The translations under genes and the position numbers were made by a program. Positions 2,596 to 8,832 of a stretch of DNA of 11,868 nt are shown here, in pieces. How positions within the stretch are numbered: position 1 is the first letter of the stretch; each line of letters starts with the position of its first letter. Origin of the DNA: a virus (Duplodnaviria > Heunggongvirae > Uroviricota > Caudoviricetes); IMG/VR virus record IMGVR_UViG_2778261165_000018, positions 1 through 11,868 of that record; one strand, 5' to 3'. The notes under the pieces are model-generated. The model was not told where the DNA came from. It did not search any database and saw nothing but the letters and a program-made list of their open reading frames with translations.

Positions 2596-3405
2596 TTATT
2601 CTTCTGAATTATCGATTACACTGTATTCCCCGGTTAATACAGAGGAGTCTGCCGGATCGATTGTCAGTGGTTCCTTTTCATCCATTGATACTGCACGCTG
2701 GATTTCAATTGAGACTGGCAGGTATTTAAACAGGCGACGAATAGCCGTTTTTTTTGCCATTTCTTCCCAGTGAGTTACCCATGGCCCGTTATTACCAGCC
2801 TTACTCTGGCTGCGCACCAGTTCAATCTGTTTGCGCGTCATAACTTCAAACTGAGTCCCTCCGTCTTTCAGTCTTGCGACAGCATAGACGTGGGTCACTG
2901 GTGCATCTTCGTTTTCTCCCGGGCGGTGTATTAACTTTTCATCAAGGCCAAATTCAAAACTAAACTCGTCACCTTCACGGACAACACGGGCTGACAGGCT
3001 GGCGATTTGACCAGAACGGCGAGCCAGATCAATCATGCCGCGATAACCAATGATTAGCTGAACGTTCTTTTTACCGCTCTTTTCGTTTTTATTACCAAAA
3101 GGCAGTAAATATGCGTGGCCGAGGGCGCTACCTGGCTCAAGGCCGAGCTGTGAACACTGAACGATCGCACTGACAAAACTCATGGTGTCACAGTTTCCTA
3201 GCGCCGGAACCTTACGAATTTCTGTGGTGGCGATACGTATCATTCGTTCAGCCGTCATATGGCGTGGGAGAGCTGCTGCCAGTTGCTCTTTCATTGATGG
3301 CTGATTAATAAAGCTGATCACGTCGTTATTTTTTACTGCTGCTGGTGCACGGTTTCCCTGGGTTTTTTGCAGATCGGCTTTTGCGATAGGTGGTTGCTTA
3401 GTCAT
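2596..3405 (-). CDS. recT: RecT single-strand annealing recombinase, 269 aa
   Basis: [27 protein letters not shown]... matches recalled Rac RecT over its whole length. RBS GGAG 7 nt upstream. Start overlaps the recE stop (3398-3405), indicating translational coupling. Confidence 0.9.
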
Positions 3406-6073
3406 TTGCATACTCCTTAGCCCAGCGGGGCAGTGATAACGTTTTAATAGCTGGCCATTCATCGGTATTCAGGCAGTCAGCCAGGGTCCTCAGATTGCGG
3501 TGATATTCCTGCTGGCCTGCCAGTTTTGCTTCTTCGCCCATCATGAAAATCTCAACCGGGTAACGTCCGCATTCAACAGTTGTGCTGGCAACCAGAAAAA
3601 CGAAAGTTGGCAGCACGCCAAACTGTGCTTCATAACCGTCACTGTAGAATGCATCCTGAACGTGATAGCGGTAGTCGTAATAAGCCGTTTTGAATCGTTG
3701 AATATCCGCTGTGGTTTTCACGTCCATGATCCAGTGAAATTCAGGAATAATTTTGTCCGGACGGCACCGACACAAAATTCCTGTTTCAGGATCTTCCCAG
3801 TAAATTGATGATTCAGCGTGTCCGGCGCTTTCAACAAGCCATTGACCCAGCGGCAAAGCCATAACGCTCTGATACATGAGTTCAATTTTCCGGCCTTCTT
3901 CGGCAGTGATAACCGTTTTTCCTGTGCTTGCGCATTCCATCAGAAACGCTTTCTCCTCTTCTTTTCCGGCGGTTGTACGGCGGTTAAATTCAGGTGCCAC
4001 GATAAAGCGGTTACTGAATTCTTCCGGTTCAAGTACACGGCAGTGGAAAGCGGTTCCTAAATCGAGCGTTTTTGTCTTTGTGGTGTCCACTGGGGCATTT
4101 TTACGCCACAAATACAGAGCCGGAGTATCAGCAATGTCGTCGAGCTGAGACTTACTGACACCGGGACCCGCGTGGTAATTCTCATTCGAAATTCCGTAAT
4201 AAATACCAGGCTCTATGTCTCCTGCGATTACGGGATCTGCGACTTCGCCAGTTTCATCACTGCAATCGCGATGCGGATCGCTGCCAGCATTCTCATTGTG
4301 CGGATGTTCAGGGCCTTCCATTTCCTCCGGATCTTTTTCCTGAGATTCATCCAGATTTTCTTCATTAAAGGTTTCCTGATACGTGGTGTCGCCCATCACC
4401 GCGCCACAATCAGGGCAGTTGCCGCCACCGCTCTGACCGCAGGCGGCACAGACTTTTTCCGGTTCCTGTTGCGCTACTGGTTCAGATTGTTTCGTTTCTG
4501 GCTCGTTTTTCTGTGCATTTGGGCTGTTTTGTTCCGCTTTCTGGTTGTTTTGTTCCGATTCGGGCTGGTTCTGGTTCACAGAATCTCGGGTTTCAATTCC
4601 CTTAACCCATTTCGGATCATTCGGGTCGCTAATCCCTTCAACAAATTCTCCGCGAGAGGCAGCCAGCAATTTGTCGGCATCGACAGGATTTTTGGGCGGA
4701 ATGGTTTTCCGGGCTTCATGGAGTTCTGCCCGCAGTTTCTGATATTTCGCATCAACAGAATTTACCTGTGACTGAGCATCCAGCGGCTGCGTGTCCTGAT
4801 GATGTTCAGTTGCATCCGGTTCCACTGTTTCAGCCGTTGCCTGTTTATCTGCCATTGCGCAAGATGGTTGCGGTTTTTCTTCACCATCGTGTTTTCCTTC
4901 TTCTGTTACACGCTGCGGCATCGGGGCAGAGGAACGACCGCAGGCAATATCCACGATTTCCGGATCAGGGTTGGCATGATCGGTTTCAATCAGCACCTTG
5001 TTCAGATATTCAGTGACATGCGCAGGGATAACCTCGATCCCAATTGGTGCTTCTTTTACGGACGCAACCACGATGGCGCGGGAATAATCCAGCCCGCCAG
5101 GCATGGTGATGAATTTGTCGCGGAAAACAGAAAAGGGCGGTTTATTTTCAGCGATAATTTCCTCGACACGTTTAGCGTGTGCCGGATGAAGGTTATAAAT
5201 GTCCACGTCCATTGAACGAGCCAGTACGCCAGTGGCTACGTCGCGCGCCAGTGACGTCAGATCGTGAACGAAACCTTCGCCGCGATCGGTGAGGTTCCCG
5301 CCGCCAGCATTAGCGCCGGAAGCCGTGCGCGTGATGCGTGAAACACGATTTCCTTTCATCCACTCTTTTGTCAGCAGACCGCGATCGGTGTAGTCTGCGT
5401 CCAGGTATGCTTCGAAAAAAGCAGTCATCAGCCCCAGGCTTGAATTGCCTGGATTAGGGAACACTCTGTCAGTATCACGCACCAGTTTGTGGAGATCGCG
5501 AATTTCCAGCGGGTCGAGCAGGCTGGTTTTGTGGGAAACAGCCAGGGCAGTAACAGCTGGTAGTTCTTCAGCCCGTGCAATGTGTAATGCCTGGAGTTCG
5601 TCGCGTGAAACGTGCGTTACCGGTTTTTCGCTGCCGTGTTGAGCAAGCCAGCGAATGGGCAGCTCCTGACCGGAAATCGGGAGTAGCATATTCTCCTCAA
5701 TCTCCGTCATGTCTTCGCCATTAACATTGGTATTGTCAGTGCTGGCTGGCTTGTCCTGCGCAGAGGATGAGGGCGCGATAAATACCATTGTGATGCCATC
5801 TTCCCCGCCTTTTTCGTAACGGTTGCAGAATTCCGTATCAAATACGCCTTCTGGTGGAAGGTCATCAACAACGGGCAAATTGACGCAAACAGGTTTTTTA
5901 AAGTCATCTTCATCGTAGCCAGCATCGTCAATCGCAACAGCACCACGGGAGATGGCAATGGATAATTTTTTCGCTTCAGCCCAGTAGAAACCGCCTTTAA
6001 TACCGAGACGTTTTCTTACTTTGTCATTTTTTGCTTCGTAATACAGTGGGTAAACTTGTTTATCGGTGCTCAT
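3398..6073 (-). CDS. recE: RecE exonuclease VIII, 891 aa
   Basis: C-terminal two-thirds (from [17 protein letters not shown] to the end ...[11 protein letters not shown]) matches recalled K-12 RecE, including the nuclease domain. The N-terminal roughly 110 residues differ from what I recall. ATG at 6073 with RBS GAGGT. Confidence 0.9.
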
Positions 6074-6143
6074 TGTTTTTTAACCTCAACTCAGATTAAA
6101 ATTAATGCGAGTGATGAATAAATGTCCCAGGTTCTTCACTCAG

Positions 6144-6173
6144 GCCTGCACAGTGTGCAGGCTTTCTTTTTTT
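6144..6173 (+). terminator. Plus-strand intrinsic terminator between racC stop and recE start
   Basis: Stem GCCTGCA (6144-6150), loop CAGTG, stem TGCAGGC (6156-6162), then TTTCTTTTTTT (6163-6173). It has terminator form only on the plus strand, opposite to the flanking genes. Confidence 0.5.
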
Positions 6174-6448
6174 CAGATTTCACCTTTTAATTTCATTGCA
6201 ATCAGAGTTGCCAGAAATTCGGCTTTTTTTTCTGCGGGCAGATTCTTTCCTATGTGCACCAGACACATTTTTTTAACACCATCGTTAAGTGTTTTAACGT
6301 TGCCTGATGGACCGTCGATATCAACCACAGTGAATGGGGTTTCTTTATTTTCTGTCTTAATCACGTAGCCAATACGCTTTCCTTCCAGGGTAACTTCGTG
6401 AACAATGTCATCAGTAGTAACAACAGTGGCTTCATAACTGGTAATCAT
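6173..6448 (-). CDS. racC: RacC, 91 aa prophage protein
   Basis: MITSYEATVVTTDDIVHEV... matches recalled K-12 RacC. RBS AAGGAGAAAAAC precedes the ATG at 6448. The longer track ORF starting at 6496 lacks an RBS. Confidence 0.8.
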   Translation of the reverse strand: MITSYEATVVTTDDIVHEVTLEGKRIGYVIKTENKETPFTVVDIDGPSGNVKTLNDGVKKMCLVHIGKNLPAEKKAEFLATLIAMKLKGEI

Positions 6449-6522: not shown

Positions 6523-6693
6523 TTAAAGTTCGTGTGCCATCTGGTCTTTTTCGGCACAGATTTCACTACAATATTTTTTCATTTCCGTCGTTGGTATAAC
6601 TCCACGCATGAAATGAAGTGGTCTTGTAATGATTTTGCTTTCTTCAATTTCTTTATTGCAAAGGTGATAAGCACATTTTATTTTCTTAGTCAT
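6523..6693 (-). CDS. ydaE: YdaE-like small zinc-binding protein, 56 aa (absent from the ORF track)
   Basis: My translation of the minus strand: [56 protein letters not shown], with paired cysteines C-x4-C and C-x3-C. Its ATG overlaps the kilR stop (TAATG at 6691-6695). Confidence 0.7.
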   Translation of the reverse strand: MTKKIKCAYHLCNKEIEESKIITRPLHFMRGVIPTTEMKKYCSEICAEKDQMAHEL

Positions 6694-6914
6694 TACCATG
6701 ACTCCGCCTTTACAGGTAAACCATCACGACCGAGGAAGACTCTAATCATGCAGTCAGAAATGCATGTTTTTGTAGTCAGGCTACGAATATAAAGTTTTCG
6801 CTTTTTAATATTGTTTGCCGAGGCGATATATGTCCGACCTTCATGAAGAACATAATCGCCAGGGGTCACACACTGACGTGGTATTTCATCAGTTCCGAAG
6901 TGATGAGCAATCAT
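6693..6914 (-). CDS. kilR: KilR cell-division inhibitor, 73 aa
   Basis: [35 protein letters not shown]... matches recalled K-12 KilR. RBS GGAGAT 6 nt upstream of the ATG at 6914. Confidence 0.8.
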
Positions 6915-7419
6915 AATTATCTCCATTTTTACAAATGAATTTTGTCGATGCGGTGCCTGGTGCCTCCAGGTGACGTTAACCAGTTAACAATTAACGCCGG
7001 ATCGTGATATCACCTAAACAGATACGGGTTGTTTTTAACTGTTCCGCGTGCGCTGAGCCGCATTCACCGCATCACAAAATTCACTTTAAAAAGGACGGAC
7101 ATCAGCCAGCAATGAAACTGATGCCGCCAAAAGGTAATCAACATGGGTTGTTGCAGCGGGGTTGTCACTCAAGCGTATGGTCAACCTGACAACCCGGTGC
7201 TCCACAGGGGGAGGGAGAATAGCACCCCTGCCATACTTACCGCCGCGCCATTTCGCGGATTGCCACAACCGGAAGCGCACGGTCGAAGAAATTTAAAGAC
7301 AAGCCTTCTAAGGGAAAAACACCTCCTCCGTGCGCTTTCGTGTTGTGCGCCTGTCTTTTTACCACTTCAGGCTCGGTGGTATACTGGAGTTCTCACACAA
7401 CCAGTAATAAGGTATTCCG

Positions 7420-7614
7420 ATGGATAATAAAGACAAAGCCTGGCTACTTGCTTTAGCTTTCAGCATCAGATCGCAGCGAGAAACAACTCATCAAGAATTT
7501 TTCTCGGAAATCGAGAATGCTGAGAATGAGTTTTTGTCACTACTCAATGAACGTGATGCTAAAAAAAGCGCCGATTCACTTAAGGCTTGGGCGAAACTAG
7601 GCTCTTCAAAATAA
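7420..7614 (+). CDS. Hypothetical 64 aa protein in the position K-12 Rac gives to sieB
   Basis: ATG at 7420 with RBS AAGGT 6 nt upstream. Candidate promoter TTTTAC (7357-7362), 17 nt spacer, TATACT (7380-7385). No hydrophobic segment, so unlike a SieB membrane protein. Confidence 0.4.
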   Translation: MDNKDKAWLLALAFSIRSQRETTHQEFFSEIENAENEFLSLLNERDAKKSADSLKAWAKLGSSK

Positions 7615-7798: not shown

Positions 7799-7977
7799 CT
7801 TTTTTCCCCTTAACGCCGGGTGGCGGAACGTTTTATCTACTGCGCTTTGTATCAATCAACAACTGCCGTCATGTTCGTATGCCTCAGGCTGGCTACTTAG
7901 CCCTGTTCAGTGGCTGGATAACTCGAGGTATTGTCCTGCCGTTCTCTGGTGGGGCGTTGTTTGGATATGACAAATGC

Positions 7978-7990
7978 TCACATATCGTGA
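7978..7990 (-). promoter_or_regulatory. Isolated operator-like site TCACGATATGTGA (read on the minus strand)
   Basis: Exact match to the TCACG-N3-TGTGA motif found three times in the racR/ydaS intergenic region. A perfect TTGACA lies on the minus strand at 8003-7998. Confidence 0.4.
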
Positions 7991-8043
7991 GTGATTTGTC
8001 AACTCAATATGTGAGCAATGTTGTTTTTGGATTTTTGATGGAC

Positions 8044-8076
8044 AAAAAAAGCCCTCGCTAATAGCGAGAGCTTTTT
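8044..8076. terminator. Bidirectional intrinsic terminator downstream of the repressor gene
   Basis: A7 (8044-8050), hairpin GCCCTCGCT/AGCGAGAGC (8051-8071), then TTTTT (8072-8076). Has terminator form in both orientations. Confidence 0.6.
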
Positions 8077-8102
8077 GATTGGAATCGAGGGAGATTAAAG
8101 GT

Positions 8103-8492
8103 TTAGGAGGATTTTTTCTGTTGCCTGCTTCTTAGATATTTTTCCACATACTCATCAAGCTCTTGAAGACGGATTTCGAACAGATCAATCATGCGTGCTT
8201 GTTCTGATCCCGGGAGCTGATTAAACAGCTCTAGCATTTTTTTCTGGTTATCATTTAACCATGAGTACGTGTTTTCCTGTTCACCGAACATTAATTCTGC
8301 GGGGGAAATGCCTAGTACTTGGCCGAGGATGATCGCATCCTCAGCCCCCACACTCCTGGTGCCAGCTTCGTAGTTAGCAATACGAGAAGAACCTGACCAA
8401 CCACATAGTTTTGCCAGGTTTCCCATACTTAATCCTCGATTTAGGCGAGTGGCTTTTAGGCGCTCGCCTATTTGTTCTGCAATCGTTTTCAT
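8103..8492 (-). CDS. racR: Prophage repressor, XRE/Cro-C1 family HTH (RacR-like), 129 aa from the ATG
   Basis: HTH signature LSMGNLAKLCGWSGSSRIANYEAG. Divergent from the cro-like ydaS across an operator-bearing intergenic region. Start taken at MKTIAEQ (8492); the track ORF extends upstream from a TTG. Confidence 0.75.
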   Translation of the reverse strand: MKTIAEQIGERLKATRLNRGLSMGNLAKLCGWSGSSRIANYEAGTRSVGAEDAIILGQVLGISPAELMFGEQENTYSWLNDNQKKMLELFNQLPGSEQARMIDLFEIRLQELDEYVEKYLRSRQQKKSS

Positions 8493-8505
8493 AGTTCCGA
8501 TTTTA

Positions 8506-8567
8506 TCACGATGTGTGAAATTGGCGGTACTCACGTATCTGTAGTTGATCTCACTCACGAAATGTGA
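8506..8567. promoter_or_regulatory. Three-site operator array (OR-like) between racR and ydaS
   Basis: TCACGATGTGTGA (8506-8518), TCACGTATCTGTA (8531-8543), TCACGAAATGTGA (8555-8567). Near-palindromic 13-mers spaced 25 and 24 bp centre to centre. Confidence 0.55.
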
Positions 8568-8572
8568 ATAAT
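8545..8572 (+). promoter_or_regulatory. Candidate rightward promoter for ydaS (pR-like)
   Basis: -35 TTGATC (8545-8550), 16 nt spacer, -10 AATAAT (8567-8572). Operator site 3 overlaps the spacer and -10. Confidence 0.35.
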
Positions 8573-8586
8573 AGAAACAGGAGGTA

Positions 8587-8832
8587 ATGATGAACAAAAT
8601 TTCAACATATCGAAAACAGCTTGGGCTGTCTCAAAGACAACTTGCTGTTCAGTTAGGGTGGATACAAAGCCGACTGGCAAATTACGAAGCAAATTTTCGT
8701 ACCCCTGGGCTAGAGGAGTGCAGAAAAATTGTTTCTACCCTTAATCGGCTTGGTGCTCATTGTGGACTTGACGATGTATTCCCCCCAGACGGTAAGCATA
8801 GCGAAAACAGCATAGGAGCGGTTGATTCATGA
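8587..8832 (+). CDS. ydaS: Cro-like HTH regulator YdaS
   Basis: HTH region LSQRQLAVQLGWIQSRLANYE. RBS GAGG fits the second ATG at 8590 better. Stop overlaps the ydaT start (ATGA at 8829-8832). Confidence 0.8.
   Translation: MMNKISTYRKQLGLSQRQLAVQLGWIQSRLANYEANFRTPGLEECRKIVSTLNRLGAHCGLDDVFPPDGKHSENSIGAVDS

Follow-up and report, generated by a model that had tools for sequence, protein, structure and literature searches.

The 99-nt spacer between the racC and recE homologues of a Rac-type prophage (positions 6074–6172 of the 11,868-nt stretch of DNA analyzed here, hereafter the window) probably constitutes a compact plus-strand cis-antisense RNA unit, which would be composed of a promoter, an RNA of about 61 nt and a terminator, and would act in cis on the surrounding operon; we put the probability of this reading at roughly 60%. 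The strength of the terminator, its conservation and an in vivo 3' end mapped at the homologous spot of Escherichia coli K-12 are observed; the promoter, the 5' end and the function are inferred. A cis-antisense RNA of a temperate phage with an intrinsic terminator of its own is of a known kind; the present instance is unannotated, and the K-12 3' end has gone unremarked in a published table.

The ORF list, annotated relatives and Pfam matches identified the window as a Rac-type prophage, with a leftward early operon encoded entirely on the minus strand:

6693–6926, minus strand: kil
6523–6699, minus strand: ydaE-like gene
6173–6448, minus strand: racC homologue from the ORF list (96% identity to "protein RacC"), the gene upstream of the spacer
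3398–6073, minus strand: recE (exodeoxyribonuclease VIII; Pfam Exonuc_VIII, 5.5e-38, and DUF3799), the gene downstream of the spacer
2596–3462, minus strand: recT
After recT in the operon order, minus strand: ralR, xis and int

Matching genomes annotate 3398–6073 as recE, and label the racC homologue either RacC or hypothetical protein. Several other RNA-related features were observed in the window. The integrase gene of the prophage (734–1810) adjoins the overlapping sRNA genes ryeA (SraC) and sdsR (RyeB), with Rfam matches at 462–606; K-12 Rac differs from the window prophage in its site and adjoins ttcA. The antitoxin sRNA RalA is present at full length at 2168–2346 on the plus strand (Rfam RF02694, 215.8 bits), in the same antisense arrangement with the DUF1187/ralR region that K-12 shows. 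Two full-length sub-threshold Rfam matches lie just ahead of kil at 7093–7143 and 6907–7104 (both on the minus strand, that of the operon), to DicF (28.6 bits against a threshold of 48, E 0.007) and STnc100 (40.5 bits against a threshold of 47, E 4e-6), near which a terminator-like hairpin is found at 7125–7098; this region may hold a DicF-like sRNA in the window prophage. Lastly, a hairpin at 8042–8080 (core CTCGCTAATAGCGAG), flanked by an A-run on one side and a T-run on the other, received terminator scores in either orientation (minus strand, −15.4; plus strand, −9.8); it is located between a plus-strand ORF (7879–8061) and a repressor-like helix-turn-helix gene (8103–8597, minus strand).

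Within and at the borders of the racC–recE spacer, the following elements were delineated:

6073–6078, plus strand: −35-like hexamer TTGTTT (3/6 consensus), overlapping the complement of the recE start codon (6071–6073)
6078–6101, minus strand: recE mRNA leader stem-loop UUUUAAUCU-GAGUUG-AGGUUAAAA, predicted in the window and K-12 folds and enclosing the Shine-Dalgarno GAGG (6084–6087)
6097–6102, plus strand: −10-like hexamer TAAAAT (5/6 consensus), separated from TTGTTT by an 18-nt spacer
6109–6141, plus strand: predicted 5' stem-loop, GAGUGA-U-GAAU, 11-nt loop, GUUC-U-UCACUC
6142–6164, plus strand: terminator hairpin AGGCCTGCAC-AGT-GTGCAGGCTT (arms 6142–6151 and 6155–6164; RNA form AGGCCUGCAC-AGU-GUGCAGGCUU)
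6163–6173, plus strand: T-tract TTTCTTTTTTT (RNA form UUUCUUUUUUU), abutting the racC stop codon (6173–6175)

The terminator is present and is far stronger than chance. Its stem comprises 10 pairs, including six G-C and one G.U, closed by a 3-nt loop, and the final T of the T-tract is the complement of the A in the racC stop codon. A sequence-only reading of this DNA had described a hairpin GCCTGCA/TGCAGGC followed by a T-run and proposed that it has terminator form on the plus strand only. The two arms were confirmed at 6144–6150 and 6156–6162, and the strand assignment was borne out as well: on the minus strand an A-run precedes the hairpin and CUGAGUGAAG follows it, and since no U-run follows the hairpin there, the terminator form exists on the plus strand only. 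A tool scan of the window ranked this hairpin with its T-run first among the terminator-like sites. A second scan of both strands, in which the hairpin free energy was combined with a requirement for at least 7 T in 9, likewise returned 6142–6164 as the strongest site on either strand (−16.0 kcal/mol, 7/9 T), with the genuine terminator of SdsR (~568–605) being slightly weaker at −15.5; among 60 whole-window dinucleotide shuffles scored on both strands, no site reached −16.0. The 3' end of an RNA terminated here is predicted at ~6167–6172. In the opposite direction, racC, recE and recT are derepressed together upon racR silencing (bioRxiv 10.64898/2026.09.06.749655), which indicates that the spacer is part of one mRNA and that the hairpin is no strong stop in the sense direction.

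The Rac prophage of MG1655 carries, at the same spot, a hairpin of a different sequence, ATAGCCTGCG-CCATA-CGCAGGCTAT followed by TTCTTTCA. Term-seq of K-12 located a plus-strand 3' end at position 1417486 of NC_000913.3 (Adams et al., 2021; PMC7815308, Supplementary file 1), where it is classified only as "antisense" to racC (PMC7815308). This end lies 4 nt past the stem, within the tract equivalent to the T-tract of the window (sequence ...AUAGCCUGCGCCAUACGCAGGCUAUUUCU). It is listed in three of three conditions, with mean counts of 185,664 (LB, OD 0.4) and 146,140 (LB, OD 2.0); the same table gives 134,815 for GcvB, 112,316 for CyaR and 92,121 for Spot 42 at LB 0.4 (PMC7815308). By these counts, the K-12 RNA ending at 1417486 is as abundant as major sRNAs. 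The bicyclomycin-sensitive (Rho) table of the same study contains no position beginning 14174, absence from such a list being weak evidence (Adams et al., 2021; PMC7815308). The sequence-only reading had named the lack of any plus-strand transcript end as the result that would speak against it; in the K-12 allele, such an end does exist. The in vivo 3' end comes from the K-12 allele, a different allele from that of the window; the window allele has a longer U-tract than that of K-12, and should terminate at least equally well. Regarding earlier surveys of K-12, no RNA is annotated in the racC–recE spacer in RefSeq NC_000913.3, no transcription start is listed in the spacer by Kim (2012), and no entry near racC or recE is found in the small-RNA sequencing survey of Shinhara (2011). 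The tables of Bar (2021) derived from Hfq RIL-seq contain no racC entry, and therefore give no sign of Hfq-dependent pairing.

To place the spacer in a wider frame, about 280 related prophage loci representing at least six alleles were compared. Approximately 216 of these loci are of the Escherichia type and collapse into 34 distinct spacer variants and three alleles, namely the window type, a type closely similar to it and that of K-12. RacC homologues are confined to Escherichia and Shigella and accompany the same alleles only, and the comparison was widened via RecE homologues and the recE leader. The three alleles share the 33-nt recE leader, which includes both promoter hexamers, and the end of racC, and differ almost completely over 6104–6172, which corresponds to the predicted transcribed segment. 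Throughout this divergence, a hairpin with a T-rich tail on the plus strand only is kept in all 34 variants except for one degraded copy. The loops vary freely and even occur in inverted form (ACT/AGT in one allele, CCATA/TATGG in another), which argues for a purely structural hairpin over a recognized sequence. A protein-recognized hairpin of the nut/boxB type and a DNA operator are both disfavored, because loop sequence and length vary and the stems are wholly different in some alleles. Loop orientation was seen to differ among near-identical alleles (window 6142–6164; L002, L011, L102 and others), and this reversal looks like a DNA-level inversion of the loop of the palindrome.

The substitutions within the stems were also informative as to strand. 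One-sided substitutions in the two stems produced G.U on the plus strand and A.C on the minus strand in six to seven events, the reverse in one event and a break on both strands in another. The asymmetry is modest, with a one-sided binomial value of ~0.04–0.06 and with some of the events coming from related lineages. In one lineage, the hairpin has a stability of only −7.5 kcal/mol on the minus strand versus −14.0 on the plus strand. These substitutions favor the plus-strand RNA as the selected form, a preference consistent with both the U-tract orientation and the 3' end that was measured.

Beyond the Escherichia type, a longer allele was encountered in other enterobacterial prophages, represented by one contig with a RecE homologue named from Salmonella enterica and by 60 viral contigs. 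It possesses the same TTGTTT-18-TAAAAT leader, an equivalent 5' hairpin, ~65 extra nt and a hairpin plus T-run on the antisense strand, the last of which is kept in 57 of the 60 loci. Three further stems were recognized in this set (GCCTGCAT/ATGCAGGC, ATCCTGC/GCAGGAT and GACCGC/GCGGTC), and at the Salmonella locus, too, the long-allele terminator ranks first among the terminator-like sites and lies on the antisense strand of the operon. The upstream genes vary among these loci, and BLASTP found no similarity between RacC and the one that was compared (111 aa); the genes ahead of the first two stem types have similar frame ends, KEKSLH and KEKILH. Since stems and upstream genes vary while the terminator stays, the conserved feature is the position and orientation of a terminator before recE. 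A second Salmonella recE homologue (L218, 1380–1640) starts 14 nt past the upstream stop and has no spacer, hairpin or TAAAAT leader, from which it follows that the antisense unit is common among recE operons without being obligatory. Between the 5' hairpin and the terminator of the long allele we also observed a 16-codon hydrophobic ORF, MSLVVGLVAHLSIAGM (L217, 1336–1500; L220–L279, e.g., L239, ~7353–7560). It occurs in most of the 60 loci, with variants that include an in-frame 3-nt deletion, conservative hydrophobic replacements and, in some, ATG changed to ATT. The prophage in L239 is situated at the same ryeA/sdsR locus as that of the window (L239 457–601).

A weak plus-strand promoter had been proposed in the sequence-only reading. 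Its two hexamers and the 18-nt spacing were found where it had placed them; the match as such amounts to only 8/12, which is at the level of chance. Matches of this grade occur at ~4.7 per kb per strand in the window, so that TTGTTT-18-TAAAAT carries no statistical support of its own. Over the 300 nt upstream of the hairpin it is, in turn, the sole candidate of at least 8/12 that both the window allele and the K-12 allele contain. TTGTTT is kept in most of the 34 Escherichia-type variants (one has TTGCTT) and in all long-allele representatives examined, and TAAAAT is invariant in the 34 variants and in the long alleles, with the exception of a deletion in 2 of the 60 long-allele loci. Spacer type and recE N-terminal type are found in all four combinations, and accordingly a common promoter can lie only in the shared leader. 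The arms of the recE leader stem-loop are identical in all alleles, with the loop being GAGUUG or, in the long allele, UAACUG; conservation of the hexamers is thus inseparable from that of the recE Shine-Dalgarno and stem-loop, because these are the same DNA. Our candidate for the antisense promoter, together with the 5' end that it would set, is TTGTTT-18-TAAAAT over the recE ribosome-binding region.

From this candidate, a start was predicted 7–8 nt past TAAAAT at ~6109 (6107–6110), and the size and fold of the RNA given here rest on that start. The predicted RNA would measure ~61 nt in the window (~6109 to ~6169) and ~64 nt in K-12. The minimum free energy fold of 6107–6170 consists of two hairpins (−26.6 kcal/mol, z −4.2), and the predicted K-12 RNA likewise has a 5' hairpin directly followed by the terminator hairpin (z −4.35); for both the window and the K-12 folds, 0 of 200 shuffles were equally stable. 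The two predicted RNAs are almost entirely different in the sequence of their bodies and share the same two-hairpin fold. Their 5' stems are GAGUGA...UCACUC in the window, CAGUG...CACUG in K-12 and CCAGUGA...UCACUGG in the long allele, and in the latter two the hairpin also follows TAAAAT. Given this fold and the predicted start, a two-hairpin RNA of ~60–65 nt is the most economical reading, in line with the short RNA of ~65 nt that had been suggested from the sequence. In a structure-guided register, the outer pair of the 5' stem flips between G-C and C-G among the alleles. A cross-allele alignment of the 5' hairpin by MAFFT and RNAalifold placed the alleles out of register and predicted no pairs, and as the MAFFT register does not match, the flip is only suggestive. 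The 5' hairpin also contains two one-sided substitutions, each G.U on the plus strand and A.C on the minus strand.

The predicted RNA is complementary to the mRNA from ~−36 to −100 relative to the recE start codon. The earlier proposal of an RNA antisense to the recE translation-initiation region did not hold, since an RNA from ~6109 misses both the Shine-Dalgarno (6084–6087) and the start codon; it is the promoter candidate, rather than the RNA, that overlaps this region, and the RNA would be antisense only to the untranslated racC–recE spacer. Any RNA made here is by construction fully complementary to the operon mRNA. The plus-strand RNA could be longer than predicted, or could be a processed 3' fragment of an antisense transcript begun inside recE. 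Searches of Rfam 15 with the whole window and permissive runs on the spacers found no family near its gathering threshold; the best scores were 21 bits against 40 for OmrA-B (window spacer), 18.9 against 55 for Phe_leader (K-12) and 22.5 against 48.1 for RT-14 (long allele). A full-text literature search that combined racC with sRNA, antisense, terminator or promoter, and that included the hairpin sequences, retrieved no described RNA at this spacer. Potential trans targets within the window were limited to chance complementarities of 9–10 nt. With regard to a type I toxin-antitoxin arrangement, in which a hydrophobic toxin ORF is adjacent, no conserved ORF was found in the window or K-12 alleles.

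How the terminator came to be selected can be explained in other ways, of which the one to be taken most seriously is that it acts as an insulator only. Antisense transcripts would then arise from the AT-rich recE ribosome-binding region, acting as a chance promoter, or from within recE, the terminator would have been selected to guard racC and kil, and the RNA would be a by-product. A promoter match that is weak and inseparable from the translation-initiation region fits this explanation, as do an RNA body that diverges nearly fully beside a terminator conserved in position and orientation, and the lack of a racC signal in the Hfq RIL-seq-derived tables. K-12 3'-end counts equal to those of major regulatory sRNAs, however, imply more than a trace by-product; a pure insulator would have no need of the 5' hairpin stem (G/C)AGUGA...UCACU(C/G), which is kept in all alleles, and the perfect complementarity of any RNA made here to the operon mRNA is a further point against it. 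We therefore hold insulation alone to be possible, although it is not the explanation that we favor. Selection could instead have acted on the hairpin in the mRNA, as a 3' stabilizer or as a processing, pause or attenuation site before recE, with the plus-strand terminator being incidental. The hairpin does form on the minus strand (−14.2 kcal/mol in the window and −18.4 in K-12), directly after the stop codon of the upstream gene. Such a role would leave several observations at odds with it: on the mRNA strand, every allele retains the A-run ahead of the hairpin and none has a U-run behind it, save for a marginal four U's in one long allele; and the one-sided substitutions are mostly A.C mismatches on the mRNA strand, down to the lineage at −7.5 versus −14.0 on the plus strand. 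The K-12 3' end was moreover measured on the plus strand, and racC and recE are co-derepressed, and we consider selection on the mRNA hairpin quite unlikely.

Two further explanations appear very improbable to us. A perfect palindrome placed where conserved sequence meets allele-specific sequence, with loop inversions attesting to DNA-level events at the palindrome, could bind a dimeric protein or, at a mosaic boundary, serve in recombination or form a cruciform. Nevertheless, the loop is of 3, 5 or 6 nt, the stems are wholly different (GACCGC vs. GCCTGCA) with only the shape of a hairpin and T-run being kept, and G.T pairs are tolerated, which is sensible for an RNA and not for a symmetric DNA site. 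A small mRNA, for which the hairpin would serve as the terminator, is equally hard to credit. An ATG at 6105 opens an 87-codon plus-strand ORF (6105–6368), and the long allele offers the 16-codon hydrophobic ORF; the window ORF, though, crosses the terminator with no stop and runs antisense to racC, the sole ORF of the K-12 allele is unrelated and 9 codons long, there is no Shine-Dalgarno, and no ORF is conserved among the Escherichia-type alleles. A coding role of ORF 6105–6368 was rejected on account of its lack of a stop before the terminator and its lack of conservation.

Based on the cis-antisense unit as the preferred reading, we propose the following sequence of events. The promoter over the recE ribosome-binding region would start a plus-strand transcript at ~6109, which would fold into the 5' stem-loop (6109–6141) and be ended by the Rho-independent terminator just before racC. 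This would yield a stable non-coding RNA of ~61 nt, complementary to the untranslated racC–recE junction of the leftward early mRNA. When the operon is transcribed, the pre-existing, abundant antisense RNA and the mRNA would form a duplex of ~60 bp, leading to RNase III processing at the junction; RNase III cuts duplexes of this sort in the pairings of lambda OOP with cII and of GadY with gadXW. Such cleavage would detach recE and recT from racC, leaving the latter with a 3' hairpin, and the expression of RecE and RecT would be uncoupled from, or lowered relative to, that of racC and kil. Alternatively or additionally, polymerase at the convergent promoter might impede leftward transcription or ribosome loading at recE, with the terminator confining antisense transcription to the spacer and out of racC and kil. 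By either route, the antisense RNA may tune RecE expression.

RecET recombineering is built on recE and recT of Rac, which are the classical cryptic recombination genes of E. coli. To our knowledge, the explanation of how they are held down and uncoupled from kil and racC is incomplete. A dedicated antisense RNA at the racC–recE junction would add a post-transcriptional or interference layer to the control of recE and recT, and the K-12 catalog would gain an abundant RNA that is so far unannotated. In its most far-reaching form, which we advance tentatively and consider doubtful, the proposal is that Rac-type prophages of Escherichia and Salmonella carry before recE a constitutive, unnamed antisense RNA gene whose product is among the most abundant small RNAs of K-12 and gates RecE and RecT against racC and kil. 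A retron toxin is reportedly set off by RecE and blocked by RacC (Bobonis, 2022, cited from a review). If the gating proposal is true, the RNA could set the balance between the defense trigger, RecE, and its blocker, RacC; the allelic RNA bodies could provide type-specific control among co-resident prophages, and the long form may also encode a 16-residue hydrophobic peptide. Should the terminator prove to be an insulator only, the spacer would still illustrate clearly how a terminator can be selected to keep antisense transcription out of phage early genes.

Several known systems resemble the proposed unit. The closest in layout is sar of phage P22, a cis-antisense RNA of ~69 nt in a phage operon that spans the arc-ant intercistronic region, with its promoter at the start of the downstream gene and its terminator at the end of the upstream gene; sar covers the ant ribosome-binding site and so blocks translation directly. 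The proposed spacer unit would share with sar a short cis-antisense RNA between two co-transcribed genes and the same arrangement of promoter and terminator. It differs in that the predicted spacer RNA stops short of the recE Shine-Dalgarno and start codon, which only the promoter overlaps; the two have no sequence similarity, and the operon concerned is one of recombination, whereas that of sar is immunity I. The OOP RNA of phage lambda, a constitutively made antisense transcript of 77 nt, is driven by a promoter of its own and stops at an intrinsic terminator; lysogens contain it, and its pairing with the mRNA of an early operon creates an RNase III substrate, whereby expression of the target is lowered. 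OOP and the proposed spacer unit would be alike as lambdoid-phage antisense RNAs directed against an early operon mRNA and ending at an intrinsic terminator. However, OOP covers the 3' coding end of cII in the rightward operon, while the spacer unit faces untranslated sequence in the leftward operon; the two are not related in sequence, and a role of RNase III at the spacer unit would be by analogy. GadY of E. coli is a cis-encoded antisense RNA located between the co-transcribed gadX and gadW, and its pairing directs processing of the bicistronic mRNA; it binds Hfq and raises gadX mRNA levels. Like GadY, the spacer RNA would be a cis-antisense RNA encoded between two genes that are transcribed together, in its case with no Hfq signal in the RIL-seq-derived tables. 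RalA provides a comparison from within the same leftward early operon, where it too is a plus-strand non-coding RNA made in the lysogen. In contrast to the spacer RNA, which matches no Rfam model and has no toxin partner, RalA is 179 nt long, matches its Rfam model in full and is the annotated antitoxin of RalR. Finally, antisense-blocking terminators within operons resemble the spacer unit in being strong, unidirectional stops that guard upstream genes; what sets the spacer unit apart from these is the sRNA-level abundance of the K-12 RNA and the presence of a conserved 5' hairpin, which point to a dedicated transcript rather than to a barrier alone.
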